Positions 43,170 to 58,295 are shown, counted from the first letter of the stretch. The stretch is 64,000 nt of DNA from an uncultured Chloroflexia bacterium (GCA_963712745.1 CAVQJC010000006.1:341133-405132), one strand, 5' to 3'. Numbers and translations: made by a program. The notes: generated by a model not told the origin, from the letters alone.

Positions 43170-44690
43170 CTAGATCTGCACCAGGGCCGTGGCGGCCGCC
43201 TCGGTCCACTCGAGGATGGCGCCGGTCACCGGCGGGAACAGGCCGATGAGGATGACCATCGCTGCGGCCAGGGCCAGGCCGGCCTTGGTGATGCCGCCGA
43301 TGGTGACCTCCGGCGCTTCGTCAGCCGGCTTGCGCATGTACATGTAGACGACCACGCGCAGGTAGTAGAAGGCGGCCATGGCGGCGTTGAGCATCATGAT
43401 CACCGCCAGTAGCGTCATGCCCCCGCCCACTTCGAGGGCGCTGAGGACCACGGTCATCTTGGCGAAGAAGCCGGCCAGCGGTGGGATGCCCACCAGCGAC
43501 AGCAGGAACACGGTCATGGCCAGGGCCAGCACCGGAGCGCGATAGCCCAGGCCGGTGAAGGTCGAGATCTGGCTGGTCACACCGGGGCGTCGCTGCAGCG
43601 CAGCCACTACCGCGAACGCACCCAGGTTCATGAAGGCGTAGGCCACGCTGTAGAAGAGCACAGCCTGTACGCCCGAGGACGCGACCTGTAGGTCGTCCGC
43701 GGTGGCGAAGACCACCAGGCCGACCATGATGTAGCCGGTGTGCGCGATGGAGCTGTAGGCCAGCATGCGCTTGATGTTGTCCTGGCCCAGCGCGGCCAGG
43801 TTGCCCACGGTCATGGTGACGGCCGCGAGCACGCCGACGACCAGGGCCCACTCGCCGCGCAGCGGGCCCAGCGCCTCTACGAAGATGCGCAGGATGAGCG
43901 CGAAAGCGGCGATCTTGGGGCCCACCGAGAGGTAGCCCGTGACCGGAGTGGGCGAGCCCTGGTAGGCGTCCGGGGTCCAGTAGTGGAAGGGCACCGCGGC
44001 GATCTTGAAGAGCACGCCGACCGCCAGCAGGGCCAGGGCCATGGCCAACGCCAGGGGGATCGGCTCGCCGCCCTCGAGCACGCCCTCGAGCGCGGCTGCG
44101 ACCGCCCCCAGCTGGGTTGAGCCGGTGAAGCCCAGGACGAAGGCCAGGCCGAAGAGCAGGATGGCGCTGGAGAACGAACCCAGCAGGAAGTACTTGATGG
44201 CACCCTCGGTCGAGAGCCCGTCGCGCTTGGCCAGGGCCGCGAGGATGTAGCCCGGCAGCACCAGCAGCTCCAGCCCGATGAAGAGGATAAGCAGGTCCTG
44301 GCCGCCGGCGATGAGCATGCCGCCGCTGACCGCGAAGAGCAGCGTGACCGTGAACTCGGCCAGCGGCAGCTTGCGCGGTACGAGGTAGTCGGGCGCGAAC
44401 AGCAGCGTCAGCAGGCCGATGGAGATGAGCACGACATCGAGCAGGGCCGTCAGCAGGTCGCGGGTGTAGAGCGCCGGGTCGCCTACGGACTGGGCCTCGC
44501 TCAGCGCGCCGAAGTCCCAGGGCATGGGCCCGATAGCCAGTGTCGCCACCAGGGCCAGCAAGAGGCCGCCCACGCCGAGCGACATGAGCAACTCGTCGCG
44601 CCGGGGCCAGAAGAGGTCGGCCAGCAGGACCGTGATGGCCAGCAGGACGATCAGCGTGAAGGGCAGCAAGGCCAGCACTTCGCTGCTCAC
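43170..44690 (-). CDS. nuoN: NADH-quinone oxidoreductase subunit N
   Basis: EGAIKYFLLGS, FKIAAVPFHYWTPDAYQGSP, KRMLAYSSIAH. Confidence 0.97.
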   Translation of the reverse strand: MSSEVLALLPFTLIVLLAITVLLADLFWPRRDELLMSLGVGGLLLALVATLAIGPMPWDFGALSEAQSVGDPALYTRDLLTALLDVVLISIGLLTLLFAPDYLVPRKLPLAEFTVTLLFAVSGGMLIAGGQDLLILFIGLELLVLPGYILAALAKRDGLSTEGAIKYFLLGSFSSAILLFGLAFVLGFTGSTQLGAVAAALEGVLEGGEPIPLALAMALALLAVGVLFKIAAVPFHYWTPDAYQGSPTPVTGYLSVGPKIAAFALILRIFVEALGPLRGEWALVVGVLAAVTMTVGNLAALGQDNIKRMLAYSSIAHTGYIMVGLVVFATADDLQVASSGVQAVLFYSVAYAFMNLGAFAVVAALQRRPGVTSQISTFTGLGYRAPVLALAMTVFLLSLVGIPPLAGFFAKMTVVLSALEVGGGMTLLAVIMMLNAAMAAFYYLRVVVYMYMRKPADEAPEVTIGGITKAGLALAAAMVILIGLFPPVTGAILEWTEAAATALVQI

Positions 44691-46252
44691 GGCAGCAACC
44701 CCGCGGTGGTCTCGGCGACGGTCTCGGCCGCATCGTCGACGATGACCAGGATCTCTGTCACCGGCATCGCGATGAGATCGAGGACCAGCGCCGGGAAGAG
44801 GCCCAGCACGACCGTCAGCAGCACCAGCGGCGCCAGCGTCGCGGCCTCCATCTTGCTGACGTCGGTGAGCCTGTCACCGAGGCCCTTCAGGAAGTCGCTG
44901 ACGTCGCCCATGATGGTGTTCTGGACCATGTACAGCAGGTACACCGCCGCGAAGATGATGGTGAACGCGGCGATGTAGCCCACCATCGGCTCCCATCTGA
45001 CGGAGCCCAGCAGGACCAGGAACTCGCCCACGAAACCGGCCAGGCCGGGCAGGCCTGCCGAGGCCAGGCTGAAGAAGACCATCAGCGTGGCGAACACGGG
45101 GACACGCTGGCCGAGGCCGCTCATCTTGGCGATGGTGCGGTCGTGCGTGCGCTCGTAGATGACGCCGACGAGAAGGAAGAGGGCGCCGGTGATGACGCCG
45201 TGGGCGACCATCTGGAAGAGCGCGCCCTGCACGCCCTGCTCGTTGAAGACGAAGATGCCCAGTGTCACGAAGCCCATGTGGCTGACCGAGGAGTAGGCGA
45301 TGAGGCGCTTGAGGTCGGGCTGGCGGATGGCCACGACGGCCCCGTAGAGCATGCCGATGATCGAGAGCGCGATGATGAACGGAGCAAGATCGACCGCCGC
45401 ATCGGGGAAGAGCGGCAGGTTCATGCGGATGAGCCCGTAGCCACCGAGCTTCAGCAGCACGCCCGCGAGGATGACCGAGCCGGCTGTGGGCGCCTCGGTA
45501 TGGGCGTCGGGCAGCCAGGTGTGCACCGGCCACATCGGGACCTTGATGGCGAAGGCCAGGAAGAAGCCCAGGAAGGCCCAGAACTGGAGCGTCGGATCGA
45601 AGCCGAACTCGACCAACTTGGTGTAGTCGAAGGCGCCCGCCCAGGGGTCTGCCGCGCCCAGCGCCACTTGTGCCTGGTAGTAGCTCCAGGCGATGGCCAG
45701 GATGGCGATGAGCATCAGCAGCGAGCCCACCAGGGTGTAGATGACGAACTTGATGGTGGCGTAGATGCGATTGGCGCCGCCCCAGATGCCGATGATGAGA
45801 TACATCGGTACGAGCACCACTTCCCAGAAGACGTAGAAGAGGAAGAGGTCGAGGCTGAGGAAGACGCCGAGCATGCCCACCTCGAGCACGAGGAAGGCGA
45901 TCATGTACTCCTTCACCCGCGTCTGGATCGGGCCGAAGGAGGCCAGGATGCTGATCGAGGTCAGCAGCGTCGTGAGCAGGACGAGTACCAGGCTGATGCC
46001 GTCCACGCCGACCTTGTACTGGATGCCGAAGAAGCCGATCCAGTCGACCGTCTGCACCAGCTGGAAGCCCGCCTGGTCGTTGTCAAAGCCAAGGGCCACC
46101 AACAGCGAGATGGCGAAGGCGACCAGCGAGATGGCGAAGGCGCCCCAGCGGTGTATGTCCACGCGCCGGTTGGGCACGAAGAGCAGGATCAACGCGCCGA
46201 CCAGCGGCGTGAAGATGAGCAGCGAGAGCAGGTCCAGCCGGCCGAGGTCCAT
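44687..46252 (-). CDS. nuoM: NADH-quinone oxidoreductase subunit M
   Basis: FYVFWE, AIKVPMWPVHTWLPDAHTEAP, KRLIAYSSVSHMG. Confidence 0.97.
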   Translation of the reverse strand: MDLGRLDLLSLLIFTPLVGALILLFVPNRRVDIHRWGAFAISLVAFAISLLVALGFDNDQAGFQLVQTVDWIGFFGIQYKVGVDGISLVLVLLTTLLTSISILASFGPIQTRVKEYMIAFLVLEVGMLGVFLSLDLFLFYVFWEVVLVPMYLIIGIWGGANRIYATIKFVIYTLVGSLLMLIAILAIAWSYYQAQVALGAADPWAGAFDYTKLVEFGFDPTLQFWAFLGFFLAFAIKVPMWPVHTWLPDAHTEAPTAGSVILAGVLLKLGGYGLIRMNLPLFPDAAVDLAPFIIALSIIGMLYGAVVAIRQPDLKRLIAYSSVSHMGFVTLGIFVFNEQGVQGALFQMVAHGVITGALFLLVGVIYERTHDRTIAKMSGLGQRVPVFATLMVFFSLASAGLPGLAGFVGEFLVLLGSVRWEPMVGYIAAFTIIFAAVYLLYMVQNTIMGDVSDFLKGLGDRLTDVSKMEAATLAPLVLLTVVLGLFPALVLDLIAMPVTEILVIVDDAAETVAETTAGLLP

Positions 46253-48315
46253 CAGCGGGCCATCAGGATGAAGAGGGTGGCGATGACGATGAGCCCGAGG
46301 GCGATGCCCAGGGCGTAGTTCTGGACGCGGCCGGTCTGGATGTGGCGGACGCCGTCACCGACCGACGTGGTCACCGAGCCCACACCGTTGACGATGCCGT
46401 CGATGATCCTGACGTCGAACCACATGATGCCGTTGGCGACCTTGCCTCCGAAGCGGTAGAAGATGAGGTCGTTGAGGTCGTCGAAGTACCACTTGTTGTA
46501 GGAGGCGGTGTAGAGCAACCGGGTCAGGCGGTTGCGTCCGGCGATGGCATCGACCTCATCGAGCCGTGCCTTCAGGTTGAAGAAACCGAAGAACCAGATG
46601 CCCACGGCGATGCCGACCGAGGCCACCACGACGGAGGCCAGGATGAGCGCGCCATCGATACCGAAGATGAGGTACTCGTGGTCGTGGATCTCCATGATCC
46701 TCTCGGCCGGCGCGAAGATCGGCTCCAACCAGCTGAAGATGACCGAGTCGCCCAGTGGCGTGCCGATGACGATGCCCAGCAGGACCGTCGGGATGGCCAG
46801 CAGGATGAGCGGGGTGGTCATCGAGCGTGGCGACTCGTGGATCTTGGGCTCGACCTCGGGATCCACGTGGCTCTGGCCGTAGAACGTCTTGCCCATCAGC
46901 CGGAACATGTAGAAGCCGGTCATGCCGGCCACGATGAGCCCCACGATGAACACCGGCCCGTAGCCGAAGATGAACGACTCGCCCAGGATGGCGTCCTTGG
47001 AGAAGAAGCCGGCCAGCGGCGGGATGCCCGACAGCGAGAGCGCAGCGATGAGGAAGGTCCAGTGGGTGATGGGGATCTTCTTGCGCAGCGCCCCCATCTT
47101 GTCCATGTCCTGCTCCTCGTGGACCGCGTGGATGACCGAGCCCGAGCCCAGGAAGAGCAGGCCCTTGGTGAAGCCGTGGGCCATGAGGTGGAAGATGGCC
47201 GCCACCCACGCGCCTACGCCAAGGGCCGCGAACATGTAGCCCAGCTGGGAGAGCGTGGAGTAGGCCAGGACTCTCTTGATGTCCTTCTGGGTCAGCGCGA
47301 TCGACGCCGCCAGGATGGCCGTGAAGATGCCGATGCTGGCCACCAGCAGCATCGTCTCCGGCGCCAGCGCGAAGATGGGCGAGGTGCGCGCGATGAAATA
47401 GACGCCGGCGTTGACCATGGTCGCGGCATGGATGAGCGCGGACACCGGGGTGGGGCCCTCCATCGCGTCCGGCAGCCAGACGTGGAAGGGGAACTGGGCG
47501 GACTTGCCGGCAGCACCCACGAACAGCAGCAGGATGACGGCATCGACGATCCACCACTCGGTCTCCGACCAGGGCATGATCTCGAACGACTGGAGCACGT
47601 TCATCGTGCCCGTGATGAGGAACACGCCCATGATGCCGATGAGGAAGCCATGGTCGGCCACGCGGTTGACCAGGAAGGCCTTCTTCGACGCCAGCGCCGG
47701 GGCTCGCCGCTTGTACCAGAAGCCGATGAGCAGGTAGCTTGACAGGCCCACCAGCTCCCAGGCCGCGAAGATGACCAGGTAGCTGTCGGCCATGACCAGC
47801 AGCAGCATGCTGAACATGAACAGGTTGAGGTAGGCGAAGAAGCGCCACTTGGCGTCGTCGTGCTCCATGTAGCCGATGCTGTAGATGTGCACCAGCGAGC
47901 CGATCCAGGTGACCACGATGAGCATCACCGCGGTGAGGTTGTCGAAGAGGAATCCGAACTCGACCTGCAAGTCGCCGACCGGGATCCAGGTGTAGACGGT
48001 GAAGCCCCAGCGCGCGTTCTCGCTGCCCAGCGCCCCGAAGCCCAGCGTGTCCGCGATGTCGGGATAAAGCGCCGCGAATGCCAGCAGCGTGGCGATGAAG
48101 GCCGAGATGAGCACGGCGCTGATGGAGATGATCCAGGGCCGCCGACCCAGACGCCGGCCTACGAGGCCCGTCAGCAGGAAGCCGATGAGGGGGACGAACA
48201 GCACCAGCAGGACTGCCAATGACTGCGCATCCGTGGCCGCCGCCAGCTGCAGTGCTTCCTCGGCGGCCTCACTGCCATGCTCGGCAGCGGCCTCGGCGTT
48301 GAAGATGAGGTCCAT
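46252..48315 (-). CDS. nuoL: NADH-quinone oxidoreductase subunit L
   Basis: GKSAQFPFHVWLPDAMEGPTPVSALIHAATMV, QTGRVQNY. Confidence 0.97.
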   Translation of the reverse strand: MDLIFNAEAAAEHGSEAAEEALQLAAATDAQSLAVLLVLFVPLIGFLLTGLVGRRLGRRPWIISISAVLISAFIATLLAFAALYPDIADTLGFGALGSENARWGFTVYTWIPVGDLQVEFGFLFDNLTAVMLIVVTWIGSLVHIYSIGYMEHDDAKWRFFAYLNLFMFSMLLLVMADSYLVIFAAWELVGLSSYLLIGFWYKRRAPALASKKAFLVNRVADHGFLIGIMGVFLITGTMNVLQSFEIMPWSETEWWIVDAVILLLFVGAAGKSAQFPFHVWLPDAMEGPTPVSALIHAATMVNAGVYFIARTSPIFALAPETMLLVASIGIFTAILAASIALTQKDIKRVLAYSTLSQLGYMFAALGVGAWVAAIFHLMAHGFTKGLLFLGSGSVIHAVHEEQDMDKMGALRKKIPITHWTFLIAALSLSGIPPLAGFFSKDAILGESFIFGYGPVFIVGLIVAGMTGFYMFRLMGKTFYGQSHVDPEVEPKIHESPRSMTTPLILLAIPTVLLGIVIGTPLGDSVIFSWLEPIFAPAERIMEIHDHEYLIFGIDGALILASVVVASVGIAVGIWFFGFFNLKARLDEVDAIAGRNRLTRLLYTASYNKWYFDDLNDLIFYRFGGKVANGIMWFDVRIIDGIVNGVGSVTTSVGDGVRHIQTGRVQNYALGIALGLIVIATLFILMAR

Positions 48316-48321
48316 CTGCCG

Positions 48322-48633
48322 CTACTCCTTCATCGACGTGTACTCGTCCACGAGCGGCGTCCTGCGGTTGCGGTAGATGGCGATGACGATGGCCAGGCCG
48401 ACCGTGGCCTCACCGGCCGCCAGCGCGATGATGAACAGCGCGATCGTGCTGGCCTGCGCGGCGAACTCGGGCGTGAAGGCCCCGAAGGCGATGATGGCCA
48501 GGTTGACCGCGTTGAGCATCAGCTCGATGGACATGAGCATGGCGATGGCATTGCGGCGGGCCAGGAAGCCGAACGTGCCGATGCCGAAGAGCAGCACCGA
48601 CAGGATGAGGTAGGCCTCGAGCGACTGGCTCAT
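48322..48633 (-). CDS. nuoK: NADH-quinone oxidoreductase subunit K
   Basis: RRNAIAMLMSIELMLNAVN, AAGEATVGLA. Confidence 0.97.
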   Translation of the reverse strand: MSQSLEAYLILSVLLFGIGTFGFLARRNAIAMLMSIELMLNAVNLAIIAFGAFTPEFAAQASTIALFIIALAAGEATVGLAIVIAIYRNRRTPLVDEYTSMKE

Positions 48634-49211
48634 GCCTTGCTCTCTTCGTCGCGCATGGCCGTGCGCGGGTTGTTGGTCTCGGGCATGTCGTCGTCGCGCT
48701 TGGCCAGGTAGAGCCCGCCGATGACGCCGGCCAGCAGCAGCACACCCAGGGCCAGGAACGCGAGCATGTAGTCGTTGAACAGGGTCAAGGCGATGTCACG
48801 GGCCTCGGCTACCTGTACCTGCGCAGTCGCGTCCCATTCGGTCAGCAGGATGGTCGTGGCCATGAGCAGCACGAGCACCATGGCAGCCAGTGCCCCGGCC
48901 CACCATTGACGGTTGAAGACGAGCCTGGCGGGACCACGCTTGGACTGCGTGATCATGACCGCGAAGAGGATGAGCACCGCGATCGCGCCCACGTACACCA
49001 GTACCTGGCTGATGGCCATGAAGGCGCTGCCGAGCAGGCCGTAGATGCCGGCCAGAGCGGCGAATGACAGGATGAGCCAGAGCGCCGAGCGGATGATGTC
49101 CCGCCCCAGCACGACGAGCAGCGCCGAGCCCAGCATCACGCCGGCCAGCAGCAGGAAGATCAGGTCATCCCAGCGCCAGTCGAGATACGGGACCGTCCCC
49201 GGTAGCTCCAC
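48630..49211 (-). CDS. nuoJ: NADH-quinone oxidoreductase subunit J
   Basis: QVLVYVGAIAVLILFAVM. Confidence 0.95.
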   Translation of the reverse strand: MELPGTVPYLDWRWDDLIFLLLAGVMLGSALLVVLGRDIIRSALWLILSFAALAGIYGLLGSAFMAISQVLVYVGAIAVLILFAVMITQSKRGPARLVFNRQWWAGALAAMVLVLLMATTILLTEWDATAQVQVAEARDIALTLFNDYMLAFLALGVLLLAGVIGGLYLAKRDDDMPETNNPRTAMRDEESKA

Positions 49212-49232
49212 TCCCTCTCTGTACCCCCTGGA

Positions 49233-51836
49233 CTACTTGTGGTGGACCGATGCTCCGCCACCCGCGGATGCTCCGGCGGTGGTGTCGTTGGAGCCGCTTA
49301 CCGTGCTGCGGCTCCCCTGGCCGTTGCCCGCCAGTCCCGGCGGCAGCATGGGCAGCAGCTGCTCGCTCGGGATGTCACGGCCGTCGGCCTGAGCCCGGGC
49401 CAGCCAGTCGCGCTCGCGGCGGACGTAGCTGAGCTCGGTGTCGCGATCCATGTCGGCCAGCGCGATGAGGTCGATCTGCGGCTCCGAGCGCGACTCATGG
49501 GCCAGTTCGAAGTCGGGCCCACAGCGCAGCGCGTCGTAGGGGCAGGCATCGACGCAGATGCCGCAGAGGATGCAGCGCGACTCGTCGACCTCGTACTTCT
49601 CCAGCACGCGCGGCTTGGGCATGAGCGCGCCGGTGGGGCACGTCTCGGCGCAGCGGCCACAGGAGACGCAGGGCGTGGTGTTCAGGCTCATGTCCAGCGG
49701 CGTCGTCACCAGCGTGTCGAAGCCGGTGCGCATGAAGTCGTAGCAGGCTGCGCCCACGACCTCACGGCAGACGTTGGCACAGCGGCCGCAGTCGATGCAG
49801 CGCGAGGGCTCGCGCAGGATGAAGGCGTGGCTGTCGTCGCGGATGTAGTCGTGGTTGTAACCCGTGAAGCGGTTCTCGTTCACCGAGCGCACCGACAGGC
49901 CCGTGCGCTTGGGCTGCAGCGTGGAGAGCGTGGTGCCGTACTCGATGCCCTGGCGGCGCAGGTCGCAGTAGCCGATGGCTTCACAGGTGCACTGCAGGCA
50001 GCGCGCCGATTCGGCCATGGCTTCTTCCTGCGTGTAGGGGATCTCGTACTCGATGTAGGAGTCGTTGCGCTCCTCGGCCGGCATGGCCTTGAGCCGGATC
50101 CGAGGCTCCTTGACCTCTCCGGTGTAGGGCACGATGGAGAGGAACTCGGGCTGCGGCTCGGCCAGCGTCTGGCGGGTCCGGATCTCGTCGAGGTCCTGGC
50201 CCTGGAGGTAGGCGTCGATGGCGTAGCTGGCGCGCCGACCCTCGGCGATGGCCTCCACCACGGTGGCCGCGCCGGTGCGCACGTCGCCGGCCCCGAACAC
50301 ACCCTTGCGCCCGGTGCCGAAGGTGACCGCGTCAGCGTCCAGCCGCCAGCGCTTGGTCTTCTCGACGCCGTCCGCTCCGTTTTCAAGCCAGCCCATCTCC
50401 GGGCCCTGGCCGATGGCCAGCAGCACCCGGTCGCAGTCGATGATGAACTCGGTGCCCTCCACCGGCTGTGGCCGGCGGCGGCCCGAGGCGTCCGGCTCAC
50501 CCAGCGCCATGCGCTGGAACTCCACACCGGTGACCTTGTTGTCCTCCCCGGTGACGATGCGAGTCGGTGACGCCTGGAAGATGGCGCGGGCGCCCTCCTC
50601 GAGCATCTCGTGGACCTCGTCGGCCGCAGGCATGTCCTTCATGTCGCGGCGGTAGACCAGCGTGGTCTCGGTGCAGCCCTGCCGCACCGACGTGCGCGAG
50701 CAGTCCATGGAGCTGAAGCCGCCACCGATGACCACCACGCGCGTGCCCTTGTGGCCGGGGTAGGGCAGACCCAGCGTGGCCACGCGCAGGTACTCGAGCG
50801 CATCGATGACGCCGTCCGCGTCCTCGCCGGGGATGCCCAGCTTGTTCGTGTCGTAGCAGCCGATGGCCACGAGGACCGCGTCGAAGCCTTCGTTCTGGAG
50901 ATCGTCGATGGTGAAGTCCACGCCCAGCTCCGCACCGCTGACGAGCCTGGCGCCGAGGCTCCACACCGCCTCGTACTCGGCTTCGAGCACCTCTGCCTTG
51001 GGCAGGCGGTACTGGGGGATGCCGTAGCGGAGCATGCCGCCCGGCTCAGGGTCGCGTTCGTAGACGGTCACGGCGTGGCCGTTGAGCGAGAGGTAGTAGG
51101 CCGCCGACATGCCGGCCGGGCCGGAGCCGATGACGGCCACGCGCTTGCCGGTAGCGGGCTGCTGGTCGAAGGGCAGCGGCGGCTTGGCGCCGGCCGCCTG
51201 GGCCTTGAGCACCTGGTCGCCTGCGTAGCGGTGGCTGTCGCGGATGGCGATGGCCTCCTCCACCTCGTCACGGCGGCAGTGCTCCTCGCAGGGTGCTGGG
51301 CAGACTCGGCCGAGCACTGACGGGAACGGGATGGTGCGCTTGAACACGCGCGCCGACTCCACGAAGTCGCCCTCGGTGTTGGCCTTGAGGAAGCCCGGGA
51401 TGTCGATGTGGCTGGGGCACTTGTTCTGGCAGGGCGGCAGGCAGTAGGCGTTGTGGTCCGAGAAGATGAGCTCGAGGTTCGTCTTGCGGATCTCCCGCAG
51501 CCGCGGCGTTTGCGTACGCACGACCATGCCCTCTTCCGCCTCGCGCGAGCAGGAGATGGGTGGTGCGTCCTCGCCCTCGACCTCGACCACGCACATGCGG
51601 CAGGCACCGAAGCCGGGCAGCTTGGGCTCGTAGCAGAGGGTGGGCACCTCGATGCCCTGGTCGCGGCAGACGTCGAGGATGGTCTGGCCGGCGCGGCCGG
51701 TGTACTGCTTCCCGTCGATCTCGATAGTGAACTCGGGCGCAGCCAGACGGCGCTGTGGCGACTGGGTCGCGAGCAGGCGCTCGGTGGCTTCGTCGACGGC
51801 GGGCTGGCTGCTGGTCTGGGGCAGGGTGTCGGTCAT
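49233..51836 (-). CDS. Fusion: NuoG-like 2Fe-2S N-domain + GltD/NfnB-like FAD/NAD(P)H domain + 2[4Fe-4S] ferredoxin + C-terminal half of NuoI
   Basis: PTLC..GACRMC..ISC; PPCQNKCP, GRVCPAPCEEHC, IGSGPAG, GGMLRYGIP, IGGGFSSMD, VYRR; CIDCGRCANVC, CVSCGRCAETCP; KYEVDESRCILCGICVDACPYDAL..PDFELA. Confidence 0.9.
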   Translation of the reverse strand: MTDTLPQTSSQPAVDEATERLLATQSPQRRLAAPEFTIEIDGKQYTGRAGQTILDVCRDQGIEVPTLCYEPKLPGFGACRMCVVEVEGEDAPPISCSREAEEGMVVRTQTPRLREIRKTNLELIFSDHNAYCLPPCQNKCPSHIDIPGFLKANTEGDFVESARVFKRTIPFPSVLGRVCPAPCEEHCRRDEVEEAIAIRDSHRYAGDQVLKAQAAGAKPPLPFDQQPATGKRVAVIGSGPAGMSAAYYLSLNGHAVTVYERDPEPGGMLRYGIPQYRLPKAEVLEAEYEAVWSLGARLVSGAELGVDFTIDDLQNEGFDAVLVAIGCYDTNKLGIPGEDADGVIDALEYLRVATLGLPYPGHKGTRVVVIGGGFSSMDCSRTSVRQGCTETTLVYRRDMKDMPAADEVHEMLEEGARAIFQASPTRIVTGEDNKVTGVEFQRMALGEPDASGRRRPQPVEGTEFIIDCDRVLLAIGQGPEMGWLENGADGVEKTKRWRLDADAVTFGTGRKGVFGAGDVRTGAATVVEAIAEGRRASYAIDAYLQGQDLDEIRTRQTLAEPQPEFLSIVPYTGEVKEPRIRLKAMPAEERNDSYIEYEIPYTQEEAMAESARCLQCTCEAIGYCDLRRQGIEYGTTLSTLQPKRTGLSVRSVNENRFTGYNHDYIRDDSHAFILREPSRCIDCGRCANVCREVVGAACYDFMRTGFDTLVTTPLDMSLNTTPCVSCGRCAETCPTGALMPKPRVLEKYEVDESRCILCGICVDACPYDALRCGPDFELAHESRSEPQIDLIALADMDRDTELSYVRRERDWLARAQADGRDIPSEQLLPMLPPGLAGNGQGSRSTVSGSNDTTAGASAGGGASVHHK

Positions 51837-53155
51837 GAGCGCACGGCACCTGCTAGTCGGATGGGTTGGCAGACCCCGGCAGGGCATTCACCCCGCTCGG
51901 TGTGGGCTTCGAACTCAGGCGCGAAGTATCGCATTCCCGACAGCAGCGGGTTCGAGGCGTCGGCCTCCAGGCCGCACAGCGCCGCGTCGCGGATGTCCGC
52001 CGCGAGGTCCCCCAGCAGCTGCGAGTCGCCGGGGCGCACGTGCCCGCTGCAGTAGGCGTTGCCCAGCTCGGCCAGGCGGCGCGTACCGATGCGGCAGGGG
52101 ATGGTCTTGCCGCAGGCGTTGTCGTTGAGGTATCGCGCCATGAGCGTGGCCACGTCCACCAGGCAGGCCGTCTCGTCGAGTGCCAGCAGCGTGCCTGAGC
52201 CGGCCAGCGCACCGGCCTCCCGCAAGGCGCCGAAGGTCAGGGGCGTGTCGAGCGCGTCGGGTGGCAGGAAGCCCCCGGTGGGTCCGCCGACCAGCACGGC
52301 TTTCAGCGCACCCTGCGCGGAGCCACCGCCGCCGTCGAGGATCTCACGCACCGTGGCGCCCGTGGGCACTTCCACGATGCCCGGCTTGCGGACCACGCCA
52401 CCGAGCTGCACCAGGGTCGTGCCGGGGGCCTCCGGGTCGCCCAGCGAAGCGTAGGCGCCGGCGCCGTGACTGACGATCCAGGGCACGGCCGCCAGCGTCT
52501 TGACGTTGTTGACGACCGTGGGCTTGCCCCACAGGCCTGCGCGGGATGGATAGGGCGGGCGCTGGTCGGGCTGGGCCCGGCGGTTCTCGAGCGCTCGCAA
52601 CAGCACCGTCTCCTCGCCTACCACGAAGGAGCCGCTGACCTCGCGCACCTCGATCTCGAGGTTGCGCCCGTCCTCGGTGCTGCCCAGGTAGCCGCGCTCA
52701 GAAGCCTCGTCGACGGCCGTGCGCAGGCGCTCGGCGGCGTCGGGCGCCGTGGCCGAGACGGCGATGATGGCCGACTCCGCGCCGACTGCCCAGGCCGCGA
52801 TGGCCGTGCCTTCCACGACCGCGTGCGGGTCACGCTCCATGAGCGTGCGGTCAAGCTGTGCGCCGGGGTCGGCCTCGAAGCCGTTGGCCACCACGTAGCG
52901 CACCGGCTCTGGCTGGGCGGCGCAGTCGCGCCACTTGGCGCCGGCCGGGTAGCCGGCGCCACCCCGGCCCCGCAAGCCAGACTCGCTGATCATGCTGATG
53001 ACCGCGTCGGGGCTGAGCTCGGCGGTGGCCTTGCGGAAGGCCTCCCAGGCCCCGCCCTTCTCGGCCTCGGCGACGTCGGCGACCGCGGAGTCGGCGGCAC
53101 GTGCCAGCAGCACGGATGGCCAGTCGCGCGAGCCGCTCAGGACGGGCAGGCTCAT
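51833..53155 (-). CDS. nuoF: NuoF/HydB-like flavoprotein subunit, divergent
   Basis: SGLRGRGGAGYP, DPHAVVEG, GEET, PTVVNNVKT, VGGPTGG, CGKTIPCRIG, LCGL, CPAGVC. Confidence 0.85.
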   Translation of the reverse strand: MSLPVLSGSRDWPSVLLARAADSAVADVAEAEKGGAWEAFRKATAELSPDAVISMISESGLRGRGGAGYPAGAKWRDCAAQPEPVRYVVANGFEADPGAQLDRTLMERDPHAVVEGTAIAAWAVGAESAIIAVSATAPDAAERLRTAVDEASERGYLGSTEDGRNLEIEVREVSGSFVVGEETVLLRALENRRAQPDQRPPYPSRAGLWGKPTVVNNVKTLAAVPWIVSHGAGAYASLGDPEAPGTTLVQLGGVVRKPGIVEVPTGATVREILDGGGGSAQGALKAVLVGGPTGGFLPPDALDTPLTFGALREAGALAGSGTLLALDETACLVDVATLMARYLNDNACGKTIPCRIGTRRLAELGNAYCSGHVRPGDSQLLGDLAADIRDAALCGLEADASNPLLSGMRYFAPEFEAHTERGECPAGVCQPIRLAGAVRS

Positions 53156-53991
53156 GCCGCCTCCCCCTGGGGCACGCTCGCACGCAGCGCAGCGGCGATG
53201 GTGGCCGCGTCCTCCGCGCTCGACTTGGGCAGGGGCTCGCCGTCGACCTCGACGTAGGCACTGCCGGACGAGGTGCCACCGCACTCGGTGGTGTCGAGGC
53301 GGACCGCCCCGTCAGGGCTGACGCCGCCGATGTCAGTGCCGAGGTGCTCGCGGAACGCGGCCAGGACGCGCCCGCCACCCAGCAGCGTGCACTGCGTGCA
53401 GCGGCAGACACGCACGATGTGGCCGACCGGCGGCTCGAAGTGCAGGTGCGGGTAGGACGTGGCCACGCCGTAGAGCTCGCTGTAGTTGGCCCCCGTCTGG
53501 TGGGCGATATGCTGCAGCGCCGCCACCGGCAGGTGCCCGTACGCACCCTGGGTCTGCTCCAGGATGGCCAGCGCCCGCCTGGGCTTGTAGCCCTCCGCTG
53601 CGAGGATCTCGTCGAGCGGGCCGAGGTCGATGGGCTCGAACGGATCGAACATGCGGTCGGGCACGCTGCGGCCGGAACGCCGCAAGGCCGACTCTTCTCG
53701 CCGCTCGGCGTACTGCTCCGCGGCGCCCCAATGGACGTGGTAGCGGTCGCGTGTGTCGACACCGCCCATGTCGATGCATTCGATGGGGCAGGCCTGGGCG
53801 CACTGGAAACAGGTCTCGCACTTGAGCGTGCCGGCCTCGTCGTAGAGCAGGATGAGCCGGCCCCGGTGACGCGGAGAGATGTCGTTGACGACCTCGGGGT
53901 AGCGCACCGTGAGGTTGGGGCGGAAGACCTGCCGGACGGCGAAGACGATGCCCTTGACGATGGCCAGGCCGGGGATCCGCTCGGTCCTCAC
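53152..53991 (-). CDS. Fusion: N-terminal half of NuoI + NuoE-like domain
   Basis: TVRYPE...PRHRGR...KCETCFQCAQACPIECI (NuoI-N), then LEQTQGAYGHLP, YGVATSY, VRVCRCTQC, ECGG (NuoE); GTG overlaps the nuoH stop. Confidence 0.88.
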   Translation of the reverse strand: MRTERIPGLAIVKGIVFAVRQVFRPNLTVRYPEVVNDISPRHRGRLILLYDEAGTLKCETCFQCAQACPIECIDMGGVDTRDRYHVHWGAAEQYAERREESALRRSGRSVPDRMFDPFEPIDLGPLDEILAAEGYKPRRALAILEQTQGAYGHLPVAALQHIAHQTGANYSELYGVATSYPHLHFEPPVGHIVRVCRCTQCTLLGGGRVLAAFREHLGTDIGGVSPDGAVRLDTTECGGTSSGSAYVEVDGEPLPKSSAEDAATIAAALRASVPQGEAA

Positions 53992-55382
53992 GAGAGATAC
54001 TCCGTGATGATGATGATGGCGCCGGCGGTGACGAAGATGTTCAGCAGGGCGGCCGGCATCAGCCACTTCCAGGCGAAGTTCATCATCTGATCGATCCGTA
54101 CGCGCGGGTATGTCGCGCGCATCAGCACGAACAGCGCGACCAGGGCGAACGACTTGCCGAAGAACCAGAGGATGCCCATGAGGGCCTCGAAGCTGAGCAG
54201 GGCCCAGAGGCTGACCAGCGCGCCTACCAGGAGGTTGGCCAGCAGGAAGCCCACCAGCAGCGACTTGATGACGCCCCACGAGGACTTGACCATCCAGACC
54301 AGGCCTGCCAGTGCCAGCGTCAGGATGGGCGGCACCAGCAGCGGGATGGCGATGAGCCACGGGCCCAGCGAGCCCGGTTCGATGTTGCTCATCTCGACCG
54401 GCGTGTCGATGCCGATGGCACTGAGGAACGGGTCCACGTCGATGATGCCGTGGTAGCCCCCCAGGAAGAGCGTCACCGTCAGCGCCGAGAGGATGAAGAC
54501 GTTGACGTACTCGGCGAAGAAGAAGAAGCCGAAGCGCATGCCGCTGTACTCGGTGGCGAAGCCGGCCACCAGCTCGGAATCGGCCTCGGTGTAGTCGAAG
54601 GGGGTGCGGCCGGCCTCGGCGGTGGCGGCGATGAAGAAGATGATCAGCGCCAGCGGCTGCTGCCAGGCATACCAGTTCCAGATGCCGCCGCCCTGGTTCT
54701 CCACGATCTGGCCCAGGTTGAGGGTGCCGGCCAGTAGGACCACGCCGAAGGTGCCCAGGATGAGCGGCAGCTCGTAGCTGATGACCGCGGCCGCGGCGCG
54801 GATGCCGCCCAGCAGCGAGTACTTGTTGAAGCTGGACCAGCCGGCCATCATCAGGCCCACCACGCCCAGGCCCGAGGCCGCGAAGAAGTAGAGCAGCCCG
54901 AGCTCCATCTGGTAGCCGATCATGCCCGGGGCGAAGGGGATGACCAGCAGCGTCAGGACCGAGGCCAGGAAGGTCACCGCGGGGGCCAGGGTGAAGACCG
55001 GTACGTCCACGCCTCTTGGCGTGTAGTCCTCCTTGGAAAGCACCTTCAGCCCCGCCATCAGCGAGGCCAGCGTGCCCCACGGGCCGGTGCGGTCCGGCCC
55101 CACGCGCAGGTTCATCTGCGCGATGATCTTGAGCTCCATGTAGATGATCACGAACGCCGCGGGGACCGTGAACAGGAGCACGCCGGTGGCAGCCGCGACG
55201 AAGCGCAGGATCTCGATGTTGGCCTCGCCGGTGTCGATGACCCAGTCGGTGACGGTGCTGCCGATGCCGGTCACCCACAGGAGGGTGGCACCCAGCATGG
55301 CCACCAGGATGATGGCTACCAGCGGCAGGATGATCTTGCCCGCGAGCGACAGGCGGTTCCAGGGGTTGCTCGCTGCGGTCAC
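53988..55382 (-). CDS. nuoH: NADH-quinone oxidoreductase subunit H (extended, 464 aa)
   Basis: RVGPDRTGP, NKYSLLGG, ISYE, AEAGRTPFD..EADSELVAG..EYSG, RATYPRVRIDQ. Confidence 0.96.
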   Translation of the reverse strand: MTAASNPWNRLSLAGKIILPLVAIILVAMLGATLLWVTGIGSTVTDWVIDTGEANIEILRFVAAATGVLLFTVPAAFVIIYMELKIIAQMNLRVGPDRTGPWGTLASLMAGLKVLSKEDYTPRGVDVPVFTLAPAVTFLASVLTLLVIPFAPGMIGYQMELGLLYFFAASGLGVVGLMMAGWSSFNKYSLLGGIRAAAAVISYELPLILGTFGVVLLAGTLNLGQIVENQGGGIWNWYAWQQPLALIIFFIAATAEAGRTPFDYTEADSELVAGFATEYSGMRFGFFFFAEYVNVFILSALTVTLFLGGYHGIIDVDPFLSAIGIDTPVEMSNIEPGSLGPWLIAIPLLVPPILTLALAGLVWMVKSSWGVIKSLLVGFLLANLLVGALVSLWALLSFEALMGILWFFGKSFALVALFVLMRATYPRVRIDQMMNFAWKWLMPAALLNIFVTAGAIIIITEYLS

Positions 55383-56603
55383 TTGTCGATCCCGCCCATG
55401 ATGGGATCCAGGCTGGCCATGATGGCCATGAGGTCGGCCAGCACCTGACCCTGCGACAGCGGCGTGACCGCCTGCAGGTTGAAGAACGAGGGGTCGTGGA
55501 TGCGGAAGCGGAAGGGCTGGTCGGAGCCGTCGCTCACGGCATAGGCGGCGTACTGCCCGCGCGGGGACTCGAGCGCCGCGAAGGCCCGGCCCGGCGGGAT
55601 GCGCAGTAGCCGCGGCAGCTTGGCCATGACCGGCCCGTCGGGCATCTGGTGCAGGACCTGGTCGATGATGCGCAGCGACTGCTTGATCTCGTCGATGTGA
55701 AGCAGATAGCGTGCGTAGGAATCGCCATCGGTTCGCACCGGGATGTCGAAGTCCAGCTCCGGATAGACGCTGTAGGGATGGGCCCGACGCACGTCATAGG
55801 GCACGCCCGTGGCCCGCAACGGTGGTCCCGACATGCTCAGGCGCAGGGCCATGTCGCGGTCGACCACGCCCAGTCCCTTGGTCCGGTTGACGAAGATCTC
55901 GTTCTCGTTCATGAGCGTGGCCTGGTCGTTGATGCGGGCGGCGGCGCGGCCCATCCAATCGCCCAGGCGGCTCAGGAATTCGTGGTTGAGGTCACCGTTC
56001 ACGCCGCCGATGCGCATGTAGTTGAAGAGCAGCTTCTGGCCTGTCAGCGCCGCCAGCATCTCCACGATCTCGTCGCGTTCGCCGAAGCCGTAGAGGATGG
56101 GCGTGAGGCCGCCCAGGTCTAGCGCGAGCCAGCCGATGAAGAGGGCGTGACTGGAGATGCGGTTCAGCTCCCAGGCCAGCACGCGGATGTACTCGGCCCG
56201 CCGCGGCACCTCCAGCTCGAGCAGCTTCTCCGCGGTCAGCACCGGCAACGACTCGCTGAACATGGAGGCGGCGTACTCGAGTGGGTCGGTGTTGCTGATG
56301 GCGTGATGCCAGTCGCCGTGCTCGCAGATCTTCTCCACCCCGCGGTGGAGGTAGCCCAGCACCGGATCGAGGTCGACGATCGCTCTCGCCGTCGATCTTG
56401 AGCACGACACGCAGCACGCCGTGCGTAGATGGATGCTGCGGCCCGAGGTTGATGAACATCTCGCCGTCATCGAGCTGGTAGAACTCGGCCTCGCGCTCGG
56501 TGCGCGGGGTCAGCGGCGGGATGGCGTCGTAGATGGTGGCGGGCGTCTGGACCATGACGTCCGGATCGTCCAGCGAGCGGACCTGTTCGCGGTCGGTCGT
56601 CAT
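55379..56603 (-). CDS. nuoD: NADH-quinone oxidoreductase subunit D, apparent frameshift near 56385
   Basis: N part [14 protein letters not shown]; after the shift [17 protein letters not shown]...ESPRG...DPIMGGIDK. Confidence 0.93.
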
Positions 56604-57230
56604 GCTCGCCCATCCCCGCCCTCGAGGGCGTCAGCGCCGCTGTGGCCGGCCGCGAGGCTCAGCAGCTCACCGTCGGCGCCAAGGCGGGCGCCGGCACCGG
56701 GGCTGGTGCGGATGACCGGGTCGCGTCGCACATCGCCGGGCGTGACGGGCCGCTCCATGTGGCGGATGCCCTCGCCCGGTCCGCGGGAGGCGTCGTCGGG
56801 CATGGCGAAATCCTTGCGCAGGGGGAATGCCTGGTAGTCGGGCGGCATGTAGATGCGGCGCAGGTCGCGGTTGCCCTCGAACTCGATGCCGAACATGTCG
56901 TAGGCCTCGCGCTCGGCCCACTCGGCCCCCGGCCACAGATGCGTGATGGAGGGAACGCGCGGGTCATCGCGCGAGAGGCCGTCCGCGATGACGCGCAGCC
57001 AGTCGGACGAAAGCGGGCTCCACAGGTGATAGGCGACCTGCATGGTCAGGCCGGTATCGACGCCGCAGAGGTCGGCCAGCAGCTCGAAGCCGAGGTCCCC
57101 GTCCTCGCGCAGGGTTCGCATGACCTCTGACAGGTCAGCCGGGCGGATCGACCAGCTCGATGGTGTCGCCCATGGCTTCGGCGGGCACCACCAGACGATC
57201 GCCGAGGCGGTCGTCGAGCAGGCGTTGCAT
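56600..57230 (-). CDS. nuoC: NADH-quinone oxidoreductase subunit C, apparent frameshift near 57150
   Basis: [36 protein letters not shown]; the N-terminus MQRLLDD... lies in the adjacent frame. Confidence 0.9.
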
Positions 57231-57258
57231 GCGCGTGTCCGTGGTTCGACTCCTCTGG

Positions 57259-57942
57259 CTAGACGCCCTCGGGCACGGTGGGGCCGACCTTGCGATCCTT
57301 CCACTGGCCACGGCGTTCGAGAACGAGCTGCTGCAGTCTGAGCATGCCGTAGATGAGGCCCTCCGGCCGGGGCGGGCAGCCGGGGACGTAGACGTCGACG
57401 GGCATGATGCGGTCGATGCCCTCGACCGTGGAGTAGGACCGCTTGTAGCGACCACCCGAGCAGGTGCAGTCGCCCATGGCCACGCACCACTTGGGCTCGG
57501 GCATCTGCTCCCACAGCCGGATGAGCGGGCCGGCCATCTTGGTGGTCAGGGTGCCGGCCACGATGAGCACGTCCGCCTGCCGCGGACTGGCGCGGAAGGG
57601 GAACATGTTGAAGCGGTCCATGTCGTTGACCACGGTGGCGGCCGACATCATCTCCATGGCGCAGCAGGCCAGGCCCGACAGCAGCGGCCAGAGGCTGTTG
57701 GCCCGCAGATAGTCGAGCAGCAGGTCGGCGGTGGTGGGCACCACGTCGAGCGCGCCCCAGCGGCCGTTGTCGCCCTTCTCGGCGAACTCAAGCTCCTTGA
57801 GGTGGTCGATGCTCGCGGGCTGGCCGGCGTAGGCCTCCGGGTCGGCCGGAACCCAGGTCGTGTTGGGCAGCACGATCGTGCCGGGCTTGCGCTCGGTCCT
57901 GGTCAGCGCGTCCTGGCCCTCAGCAGGCTTCTTCACTTCCAT
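57259..57942 (-). CDS. nuoB: NADH-quinone oxidoreductase subunit B
   Basis: GLACCAMEM, RASPRQAD, AMGDCTCSGG, VDVYVPGCPPRPE. Confidence 0.97.
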   Translation of the reverse strand: MEVKKPAEGQDALTRTERKPGTIVLPNTTWVPADPEAYAGQPASIDHLKELEFAEKGDNGRWGALDVVPTTADLLLDYLRANSLWPLLSGLACCAMEMMSAATVVNDMDRFNMFPFRASPRQADVLIVAGTLTTKMAGPLIRLWEQMPEPKWCVAMGDCTCSGGRYKRSYSTVEGIDRIMPVDVYVPGCPPRPEGLIYGMLRLQQLVLERRGQWKDRKVGPTVPEGV

Positions 57943-58295
57943 GTCAGCAGGCCCTTCTTGGCCGCGTACAACACCGACAGCTCCATGATGCCCACGAAGA
58001 CGAGCATGCCCACGAACCCGCCCACCAGAACATCGTCGAAGACGAGCGCCCACAGGGCGATGAAGACGACCTCGATGTCGAAGGCCACGAACAGCAGGGC
58101 GTAGAGGTAGAAGGAGAGCCCGAAGCGGCCGCGGGTGTCGCCGTAGGTGTCGATGCCCGACTCGTAGGGCAACCCCTTGTGCTCGTCGCCCTTGTGCCGG
58201 TGAGAGATGAACCAGGCCAGACCGATGGTCAGGAATACGAAGCTGAACCCCGCGATCACGAAGCCGAGCACGTACCAGATCGGAGCGGTCAACAC
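57933..58295 (-). CDS. nuoA: NADH-quinone oxidoreductase subunit A
   Basis: PYESG, FYLYALLFVAFDIE, KKGLLTW. Confidence 0.95.
   Translation of the reverse strand: MLTAPIWYVLGFVIAGFSFVFLTIGLAWFISHRHKGDEHKGLPYESGIDTYGDTRGRFGLSFYLYALLFVAFDIEVVFIALWALVFDDVLVGGFVGMLVFVGIMELSVLYAAKKGLLTWK

Follow-up and report, generated by a model that had tools for sequence, protein, structure and literature searches.

Probable attachment of a Stn/Nfn-Bfu-type NAD(P)H module to complex I through a split NuoI in Candidatus Limnocylindria

NuoI (TYKY) belongs to the invariant core of complex I, a respiratory enzyme that has been studied as thoroughly as few others. A 64,000-nucleotide stretch of DNA from an uncultured Chloroflexia bacterium (GCA_963712745.1 CAVQJC010000006.1:341133-405132), which is called the window here, carries on its minus strand a nuo operon in which three genes, designated X, Y and Z, lie between nuoH and nuoJ. 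The operon would encode the organism's only complex I, i.e., its proton-pumping NAD(P)H:quinone oxidoreductase, and in this sole complex I the NuoE-F-G part has probably been replaced by a three-subunit NAD(P)H module of the Stn/Nfn-Bfu type that is wired in by a NuoI split between X and Z. There is in our judgement an even chance that this represents an undescribed and widespread type of complex I ('Nuo-Stn') in the Chloroflexota and probably the Thermoleophilia, with the module inserted in nuoI and stapled to the quinone-reducing Q-module by the iron-sulfur clusters N6a and N6b, each held by two chains.

As read from the frames in the window, the gene order is nuoA-B-C-D-H-X-Y-Z-J-K-L-M-N, the core genes A-D, H and J-N all belonging to one operon, and among the frames of this operon there is neither a nuoE, nuoF or nuoG between nuoD and nuoH nor a separate nuoI. 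Both this order, lacking an intact nuoI, and the coupling of X, Y and Z by four-base overlaps (ATGA at X/Y and again at Y/Z, with GTGA at H/X) agree with what an earlier note on the window, made from the sequence alone, had proposed. Z is separated from nuoJ by a spacer of 21 bases, and the G + C content of the operon region is 64-72%. NuoB contains GLACCAMEMM, GDCTCSGG and PGCPPRPE, and NuoD contains GPQHPSTHG; we take CCAMEMM, GDCTCSGG and GCPPRPE to be the motifs of cluster N2 and GPQHPSTHG to be the quinone-site signature.

The protein encoded by X starts as a NuoI. Its residues 10-82 match positions 12-84 of 180 in the NuoI model NF004536 (E 5.7e-16), its residues 14-80 match positions 1-66 of 121 in TIGR01971, and it displays the N-terminal features of NuoI, namely the membrane-proximal helix, TxxYPE, RxRG and the first cysteine motif, the last being the only CxxCxxCxxxCP motif of the protein (C58-C61-C64-C68-P69). 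In 32 aligned X sequences from four families T28, Y31, P32, R43, G44, K57, C58, E59, C61, C64, C68 and P69 are invariant, and the N-terminal half aligns with the N-terminus of intact NuoI from Chloroflexota. The NuoE part that follows has StnA as its best match in the PDB, and the previously proposed reading of X as a NuoI start with a single motif that continues as NuoE is borne out by the matches to NF004536, TIGR01971 and 2Fe-2S_thioredx.

Z in turn has the domains that characterise the A subunits of Stn and Nfn-Bfu enzymes, i.e., a 2Fe-2S domain, an inserted GltD-type domain for flavin adenine dinucleotide (FAD) and NADPH, and a two-cluster ferredoxin domain with the cysteine motifs a and b. 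Its best match in the PDB is 9bov_A (E 1.4e-165, Z residues 38-764), other close relatives being StnC (8oh5_C) and NfnA (9n5u_A); it matches PRK12814 over residues 36-693, and its GltD-type part is matched by TIGR01318 (residues 134-544) as well as by NfnB and GltD chains in the PDB. In the conservation alignment of Z, comprising 36 sequences from five families, C68, C79, C82 and C96 of the 2Fe-2S domain, all eight cysteines of motifs a and b and likewise those of a third motif, c, are invariant, as are Y395, R396 and R397, a YRR stretch after the second Rossmann strand that presumably reflects a preference for NADPH. An assignment of Z as NuoG was rejected, since TIGR01973 matches only residues 38-137 and Pfam shows no molybdopterin domain.

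Beyond the two-cluster domain, residues 743-787 of Z match positions 71-115 of 121 in TIGR01971, which is what the earlier note had seen as the second half of NuoI at the end of Z, just before nuoJ. When residues 735-867 are searched alone, the nine best NCBIfam matches are all NuoI/NdhI models, the top one having an E value of 2.9e-12, while no generic ferredoxin family does better than 1e-6, and the best single-stretch matches in the PDB are the C-terminal halves of NuoI/TYKY with 53 bits. A generic ferredoxin origin of the tail, which the note had itself considered, was therefore discarded, as the NuoI/NdhI models fit better (2.9e-12 versus 1e-6); polyferredoxins head the whole-sequence PDB list solely through the sum of their many weak repeats and reach 30 bits in their best single stretch as against 53.

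The NuoI-like parts of X and Z thus match complementary parts of one profile, with neither part reaching the TIGR01971 cut-off of 113.05 bits (X 44.3-46.9 for positions 1-66/67, tail of Z 46.2). In pairwise comparisons with intact NuoI, X follows the N-terminus to just short of motif 2, and Z follows from the strand before motif 2 through the ...GPxFELA... tail and beyond; pairwise and profile alignments were used instead of a MAFFT alignment of the halves with intact NuoI, which misplaced the motif of X on motif 2. Of the earlier proposal, the split of NuoI and the two in-frame fusions, which are conserved, stand; the cut is not a clean one, as the halves share about ten residues.

X contributes one cysteine motif and Z three (at residues 680, 723 and 755), and all 16 cysteines are invariant. 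In a two-cluster ferredoxin fold each cluster takes three cysteines of one motif and one of the other. The cysteines of motifs a and b are spaced by 33 residues, which we take to be the spacing of the two-cluster domain of FeFe hydrogenase; the alignment with 9bov_A, which lacks motif c, spans both motifs residue for residue, and the match to StnC (8oh5_C) likewise extends through a and b. Since a and b pair in this manner in the solved homologues, motif c and the motif of X are left unpaired, and as these correspond to the second and the first motif of NuoI, X and Z together would rebuild NuoI. The clusters N6a and N6b would then each be ligated by both the X and the Z chain.

The split-NuoI architecture is widespread and not peculiar to the window's genome. 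In the class Candidatus Limnocylindria (Chloroflexota), Z is present in all 61 genomes sampled, as a single match through residue 780 or beyond in 57 and with the C-terminal half as a separate piece in the other four. Within a sample of 301 genomes of the phylum, the match to X spans the NuoI half into the NuoE part in 32/32 genomes of families f1, f2 and f3; X is full length in 22 of 24 genomes of the same genus (in pieces in the other 2), and its residues 4-270 are covered in 15 of 16 genomes of a second family, which has genomes of about 1.1 Mb. An intact NuoI over the cut-off was found in one of the 61 genomes of the class, a set that includes 55 with a completeness of 90% or more; in the others each NuoI-profile match covers half of the model, either from position 1 to about 70 or from about 70 to 112. 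This lone genome (G346, family f69) has an extra canonical 14-gene operon with H beside I, so that no intact nuoI serves the operon described here. As a side observation, this second operon (L131, G346:C21:80000-99999) lies about 18 kb from the genome's B-D-X-Y-Z locus; A-B-C-D-F-G-H-I-K-L-M-N were matched, E was not searched and J gave no match, and its NuoH forms a long branch in the tree described below.

Nor does an intact NuoI, whose possible presence elsewhere the earlier note had raised, turn up in the window's own genome (G000), a bin of 20 contigs that is 84.55% complete with 5.03% contamination: none of its 14 NuoI-profile matches is over the cut-off, the two best are the two halves with 45.5 bits each, and it has one NuoH (PF00146). 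At this completeness the negative result falls short of proof for this one genome.

A scan of one genome per species yielded 560 relatives of X, the best 80 of which provide the counts for named loci; they are labelled, e.g., Candidatus Limnocylindrales, Candidatus Limnocylindria or Chloroflexi bacterium CSP1-4. In 80/80 of these loci the genes present keep the order H-X-Y-Z-J (H 80, X 80, Y 77, Z 73, J 59, the rest being lost at contig ends), and in the 56 loci in which it could be measured Z and J are separated by -13 to 189 bases, which leaves no room for nuoI. Both fusions and the synteny are thus found in relatives. Two of the loci (L094 and L096), labelled Candidatus Sulfotelmatobacter sp. 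and Acidobacteriota bacterium and with 58-60% identity to X, look like mis-binned or mislabelled contigs. The f3 loci have a longer interval between Z and nuoJ than the window, about 1.6-2 kb (L033 14397-16368; L036 13916-15556; L038 6669-8265).

Family f69 of the same class has the genes at two loci, B-D-X'-Y'-Z' among unrelated genes and A-C-H-J-K-L-M-N, and in the latter, membrane-arm locus J directly follows H with no I in between; this arrangement is independent evidence that the two halves stand in for NuoI. Family f70 has Z and a separate NuoH, which point to a two-locus arrangement as in f69. Outside the class, families f8 and f45 of the Chloroflexota have the loci B-X''-Y''-Z'' and A-C-D-H, with a Z that is 43-46% identical to that of the window and includes the C-terminal half of NuoI, and family f27 has both halves and a second NuoH. 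In all five genomes tested from f8, f45 and f27 there are also a canonical H-I pair, an intact NuoI over the cut-off and a second full-length NuoH.

A search with X of 1.84 billion representatives gave 52 matches at E 1e-30 or better, and more distant matches (P0207, P0225 and P0240) are full-length fusions whose NuoE cluster site is complete. Nothing in 401 Chloroflexota genomes matches P0225 closely, and it has 110 relatives in metagenome contigs; of 80 loci kept from this second lineage five were examined, and all five read A-B-C-D-H-X-Y-Z-J-K-L-M at 65-70% G + C. In these loci X combines a single NuoI motif with an intact NuoE site, Z contains all three motifs, a, b and c, as well as the NuoI tail (seen in L164 and L146), and Y is of the full BfuB type: it has a thioredoxin-like 2Fe-2S domain at the N-terminus and a 2x[4Fe-4S] domain at the C-terminus, and its N3 motif is canonical (in a Pfam scan of the Y of L164, 2Fe-2S_thioredx at residues 1-79 and Fer4 at residues 540-593). 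The second lineage keeps a complete Stn/Bfu-type A-B-C set at the same place of the operon. One of 120 listed relatives of P0225 bears the organism label Thermoleophilia bacterium, and this one label weakly suggests that the lineage belongs to the Thermoleophilia.

In the window the Y subunit is reduced by comparison. Pfam finds Complex1_51K, SLBB and NADH_4Fe-4S and nothing further, Complex1_51K and NADH_4Fe-4S passing their cut-offs and SLBB remaining at 24.7 bits below its cut-off of 27, and the NuoF model TIGR01959 gives 346.7 bits where its curated cut-off asks for 558.65. The N3 motif is CGKTIPC, i.e., the second cysteine is missing; in 9 of 12 aligned Y sequences from Limnocylindria, and in the majority of those from f1, f2 and f3, it is replaced by threonine or alanine, which we assume to be the pattern of 3Fe-4S sites, and in the Y of L031, L034 and L037, among which family f69 is represented, the motif is canonical. 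The site at the N3 position may accordingly hold a three-cysteine or 3Fe-4S cluster. The extra Bfu clusters of bifurcating B subunits, for which clusters B2-B5 (PMC9304861), taken as an N-terminal 2Fe-2S domain plus a C-terminal 2x[4Fe-4S] domain, served as the criterion, were not found in the Y of the window by the Pfam scan. The NuoE site shows a similar erosion in alignments: the X of the window retains the C-x-C-x2-C and a single cysteine of the second pair, families f2, f3 and f69 have lost this pair altogether, and the site is complete in P0225 and L164. The thioredoxin-like domain of X is shortened in f69, f8 and f45, where the proteins have 228-239 amino acids.

Compared with the canonical 14-subunit complex I (Thermus thermophilus Nqo1-14, PDB 2fug/4hea), the operon has the same genes for the Q-module and the membrane arm, and shares a NuoF-like subunit for flavin mononucleotide (FMN), a NuoE-like domain, an N-terminal 2Fe-2S domain of the NuoG type and the residues of NuoI. 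It differs in that NuoI is not one polypeptide, that the molybdopterin-like domain of NuoG is missing, that the NuoG-like subunit contains a GltD-type FAD/NADPH domain, and that the genes of the input module are located between H and J and not, as is canonical, between D and H. A close counterpart of the input module is StnABC of Sporomusa ovata (8oh5), with which it has in common the A-B-C gene order and, in Z, the 2Fe-2S domain, the GltD domain with FAD/NADPH and two 4Fe-4S clusters, and the two-cluster domain, Z residues 36-766 aligning with residues 4-700 of StnC. As described for Stn (PMC10482914), StnC is built on a frame like that of NuoG, into which a GltD domain with FAD and NADPH as its ligands is inserted, electrons go singly through its clusters to the FMN of StnB, and a C-terminal FdhF-like domain (residues 683-1172) carries two clusters (C1 and C2) off the pathway. 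Where this FdhF-like domain sits in StnC, Z has the C-terminal half of NuoI, 21 residues past motif b; in addition, unlike in Stn, X carries the N-terminal half of NuoI and the Y of the window lacks the extra clusters of StnB. Stn is, by the same account, a soluble enzyme that reduces ferredoxin, whereas X-Y-Z are placed, from their genes alone, in a membrane complex. NfnABC (Nfn-Bfu; PDB 9n5u, 9bov) likewise has an A subunit with a GltD insertion in a NuoG/HydA-like frame, but unlike X-Y-Z it is soluble, lacks NuoI parts and has a bifurcating B subunit.

Among relatives of complex I, Nuo-Bfu (Schut et al. 2022, PMC9304861) is a predicted 14-subunit complex I of Deferribacteres, Proteobacteria, Planctomycetes and Nitrospirae in which BfuABC replaces NuoEFG. 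It resembles the present case in having a Bfu-type ABC module in the middle of a nuo cluster that feeds quinone reduction, the second lineage even having a full BfuB-type Y, and it apparently differs in the GltD-containing A subunit and the split NuoI, of which we found no mention for Nuo-Bfu; the main text of that paper nowhere uses the term NuoI. Thermotoga and proteobacteria have Mbx-like operons with a gltD-related flavoprotein at the position of NuoI (Degli Esposti 2015, PMC4758237), so that there, too, a GltD-type NAD(P)H flavoprotein occupies this position in a complex I relative; going by the description given there, however, this is a substitution of NuoI in a hydrogenase-related complex and not a case of NuoI halves in a true nuo operon. 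Finally, an 11-subunit complex I (NUO11/NDH-1) with the order A-B-C-D-H-I-J-K-L-M-N and no E, F or G is reported for Chloroflexi and Actinobacteria (Moparthi and Hagerhall 2011, PMC3144371), in which, unlike here, NuoI is intact and, as described there, no flavin input module belongs to the operon. No description of a split NuoI, or of a Stn-type module in complex I, came up in the full-text literature, a scope that excludes subscription journals and supplements; the supplements of PMC9304861 and PMC4758237 list gene clusters and could bear on priority. What the operon presents is thus a complex I with an alternative input module that is attached via a split core subunit, an attachment not found in print.

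In the mechanism that we propose for it, NADPH electrons would enter at the FAD of the GltD-type domain of Z and NADH electrons at the FMN of Y, and both inputs would converge on the clusters of Z, from where they would pass through the shared N6a and N6b to N2 in NuoB and on to quinone. Motifs a and b would form two clusters of Z's own, as in StnC, while motif c and the motif of X would rebuild the NuoI fold, N6a and N6b each drawing three cysteines from one chain and one from the other, with C68 of X and C765 of Z as the predicted cross-ligands. The rebuilt NuoI would thereby tie X (and Y via the NuoE-like domain) as well as Z to NuoB, NuoD and NuoH.

As to its origin, nuoI of the 11-gene operon, the likely recipient, is likewise flanked by H and J, which fits the insertion of a three-gene cassette. 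This upholds the suggestion of an insertion into nuoI made in the earlier note and corrects the type of cassette, which is Stn/Nfn-Bfu and not NuoEFG-like, since Z matches StnC and 9bov_A and the NuoE part of X matches StnA best. In the simplest history a Stn/Bfu-type ABC cassette would have been inserted once into the nuoI of an 11-gene nuoABCDHIJKLMN operon, after which the FdhF-like C-terminal domain would have been lost; Y's bifurcation-type extras, together with the NuoE cluster, would later have decayed in the Limnocylindria, and the operon would have been fragmented in f69, f8 and f45. In a NuoH tree of 27 rows, 22 split-type rows are parted from 5 canonical rows by a branch with support 100/99; the tree is unrooted, its 5 canonical rows are all from Chloroflexota and its groups are defined by the split feature itself, and it is compatible with one origin.

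Several observations weigh against parts of this interpretation. The use of NADH and NADPH is assigned from homology alone, and the NADH branch looks weakened in the lineage of the window, to judge from the N3 cysteine, the NuoE site and the missing Bfu extras. The order in which the insertion took place is unproven, as the gene layouts of f8, f45 and f69 may be the older ones, and for this order the missing root, the small number of canonical rows and the feature-defined groups limit what the NuoH tree can say. The cut through NuoI is moreover blurred, the strand preceding motif 2 of NuoI (EQYAERREES) being kept in X with a copy of its own in Z. Most of the remaining difficulties concern the pairing of the motifs: the gap of 21 residues between b and c is normal for a two-cluster ferredoxin, the Pfam family Fer4_7 covers Z residues 723-769 and thus motifs b and c, BLAST aligns residues 723-783 of Z, across a gap, with intact NuoI including its two motifs, and the Z of four other Chloroflexota genomes outside the Limnocylindria matches positions 40-111 of the NuoI profile. 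All four are what one would expect if b and c of Z formed a self-contained NuoI-like domain and the motif of X paired with a, or made one cluster with a non-cysteine ligand, in which case NuoI would have been moved to Z rather than halved and X would still be clamped to Z. We consider this different pairing improbable, though worth keeping in mind, because motifs a and b have their counterparts, residue for residue, in the two-cluster domain of 9bov_A, which manages without motif c, with StnC matching the same region; because the NuoI-specific N-terminal 57 residues and the first motif are kept in X, with invariant residues, and not in Z; and because the part of Z after motif b matches by itself only positions 71-115 of the NuoI profile.

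A still less probable alternative retains the split and denies its role in respiration, the NuoI halves then being anchoring relics and X-Y-Z mainly a transhydrogenase of the soluble type or a generator of NADPH, e.g., by reverse transfer from quinol to NADP+. The membership of all genes in one translationally coupled nuo operon and the lack of any other complex I in the Limnocylindria are difficult to reconcile with it, as are the invariance of the 16 cysteines of the four motifs across families, the membrane-arm genes without nuoI in f69 and the matching A-C-D-H loci in f8 and f45. It can draw on the electron transfer described for Stn, where electrons pass between FAD and FMN by the same cluster chain (PMC10482914), on the B-X-Y-Z loci that lie apart from the membrane-subunit genes in f8, f45 and f69, and on the canonical complex I that the f8, f45 and f27 genomes also carry. 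That the fusions were produced by misassembly or by frameshift errors, the bin being a long-read metagenome bin, or that they belong to a decaying operon, is suggested by two one-base errors in the window, in nuoC and nuoD, and by the completeness and contamination of the bin quoted above; given fusions in 61/61 class genomes, in 80/80 named loci and in metagenome contigs of many studies, strong residue conservation, and short-read contigs identical to the window that bridge junctions, its probability is negligible, and an artefact or pseudogene was ruled out by the conservation and the independent contigs.

The latter come from a comparison of window positions 49100-57600 with contigs assembled from public short-read runs. 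Two junctions, Y/Z (X2 record 16) and that of the NuoI with the NuoE part within X (X1 record 6), are bridged by contigs identical to the window, and H/X is bridged by a related one (X3 record 27); few contigs cover X/Y, so that support from reads, as asked of the junctions earlier, is obtained for three of them and is thin for X/Y. The same contigs account for the two frames in which nuoC and nuoD are each read in the window. X3 and X18 contigs, otherwise identical to the window, lack one base at 57150 in nuoC, X1 and X18 contigs lack one at 56382/56383 in nuoD, and relatives have both parts of nuoD in a single frame. As the contigs lack one base exactly where the frames change, the frameshifts are one-base assembly errors in the window, and the reading of nuoC and nuoD as decaying genes was dropped. 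A further one-base difference at 51955 was seen in one contig from an RNA library at depth 3 and is absent from X2 and X3; we regard it as noise. The habitat labels of the runs (sediment, estuary) had word shares of 0.38 or less and were not used.

If the proposed wiring of the Stn/Nfn-Bfu-type module through the split NuoI is correct, cells could respire NADPH directly, and in the lineage with a full BfuB-type Y the confurcation of NADH, NADPH or ferredoxin might drive quinone reduction and proton pumping. It predicts iron-sulfur clusters that are ligated across a subunit interface in the main path of electrons, and a complex I with a second, NADPH-specific flavin entry, which would make it a defined target for structural biologists; models of NADPH/NADH balance and of respiration would change accordingly for the Limnocylindria and the second lineage. 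Limnocylindria are abundant in soils and fresh waters. A conserved split of NuoI would in addition show how an electron-input module can be grafted onto the Q-module and would thus bear on the acquisition of the N-module. For annotation it is a warning: the genes are currently labelled 'NADH-quinone oxidoreductase subunit E' or 'glutamate synthase small subunit', and the genomes appear to lack NuoI.

The coordinates of the operon and of the domains of X and Z are collected in Table 1.

Table 1. Genes of the operon and domains of X and Z, in positions of the window
Feature	Position	Strand	Basis or remark
nuoA	57933-58295	minus	translation; matches nuoA of related operons
nuoB	57259-57942	minus	kept beside nuoC/D in relatives
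nuoC	56600-57230	minus	two frames in window; one surplus base near 57150
nuoD	55379-56603	minus	two frames in window; one surplus base at 56382/56383
nuoH	53988-55382	minus	sole NuoH of own genome (PF00146, one match)
X (NuoI N-terminal half + NuoE-like domain, 279 aa)	53152-53991	minus	profile matches, relatives
X residues 1-105, NuoI N-terminal half	53677-53991	minus	NF004536 E 7.7e-17 on piece alone
X residues 127-269, NuoE-like thioredoxin-type domain	53185-53613	minus	PF01257 (2Fe-2S_thioredx) E 2.3e-24
Y (NuoF-like FMN/NADH subunit, 440 aa)	51833-53155	minus	Pfam domains, TIGR01959
Z (StnC-like, ends in NuoI C-terminal half, 867 aa)	49233-51836	minus	Pfam, NCBIfam and PDB matches
Z residues 35-110, NuoG/HydA-type 2Fe-2S domain	51507-51734	minus	Fer2_4 E 2e-21
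Z residues 132-547, GltD/NfnB-type, two 4Fe-4S sites, FAD + NAD(P)H folds	50196-51443	minus	Fer4_20, Pyr_redox_2
Z residues 673-738, 2[4Fe-4S] domain, motifs a (C680-C690) + b (C723-C733)	49623-49820	minus	Fer4_Nqo3
Z residues 743-787, NuoI C-terminal half, motif c C755-C758-C761-C765-P766, GPDFELA tail	49476-49610	minus	TIGR01971
nuoJ	48630-49211	minus	order common to relatives
nuoK	48322-48633	minus	order common to relatives
nuoL	46252-48315	minus	order common to relatives
nuoM	44687-46252	minus	order common to relatives
nuoN	43170-44690	minus	order common to relatives

The NuoH of the window (464 amino acids) aligns to the NuoH of families f3 and f69 in two blocks, at about residues 60-310 and 400-460, which suggests an insertion of roughly 90 residues in the NuoH of f1 and f2. 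With respect to transcription, contigs of the metatranscriptome run X18 are identical to the window at 51939-52135, 52642-52867, 55313-55507, 56324-56528 and 57114-57342, stretches that fall in Y, nuoD/H, nuoD and nuoB/C; they hint at expression, which is not claimed here as carry-over of DNA is possible. The window's genome also encodes further GltD-type paralogues of Z (C17:186665-188269, C17:347825-349369 and C1:259515-261029), and one of its paralogues of Z, with an open frame of 1197 amino acids that matches Z residues 134-690, may be a soluble StnC/NfnA-like protein.

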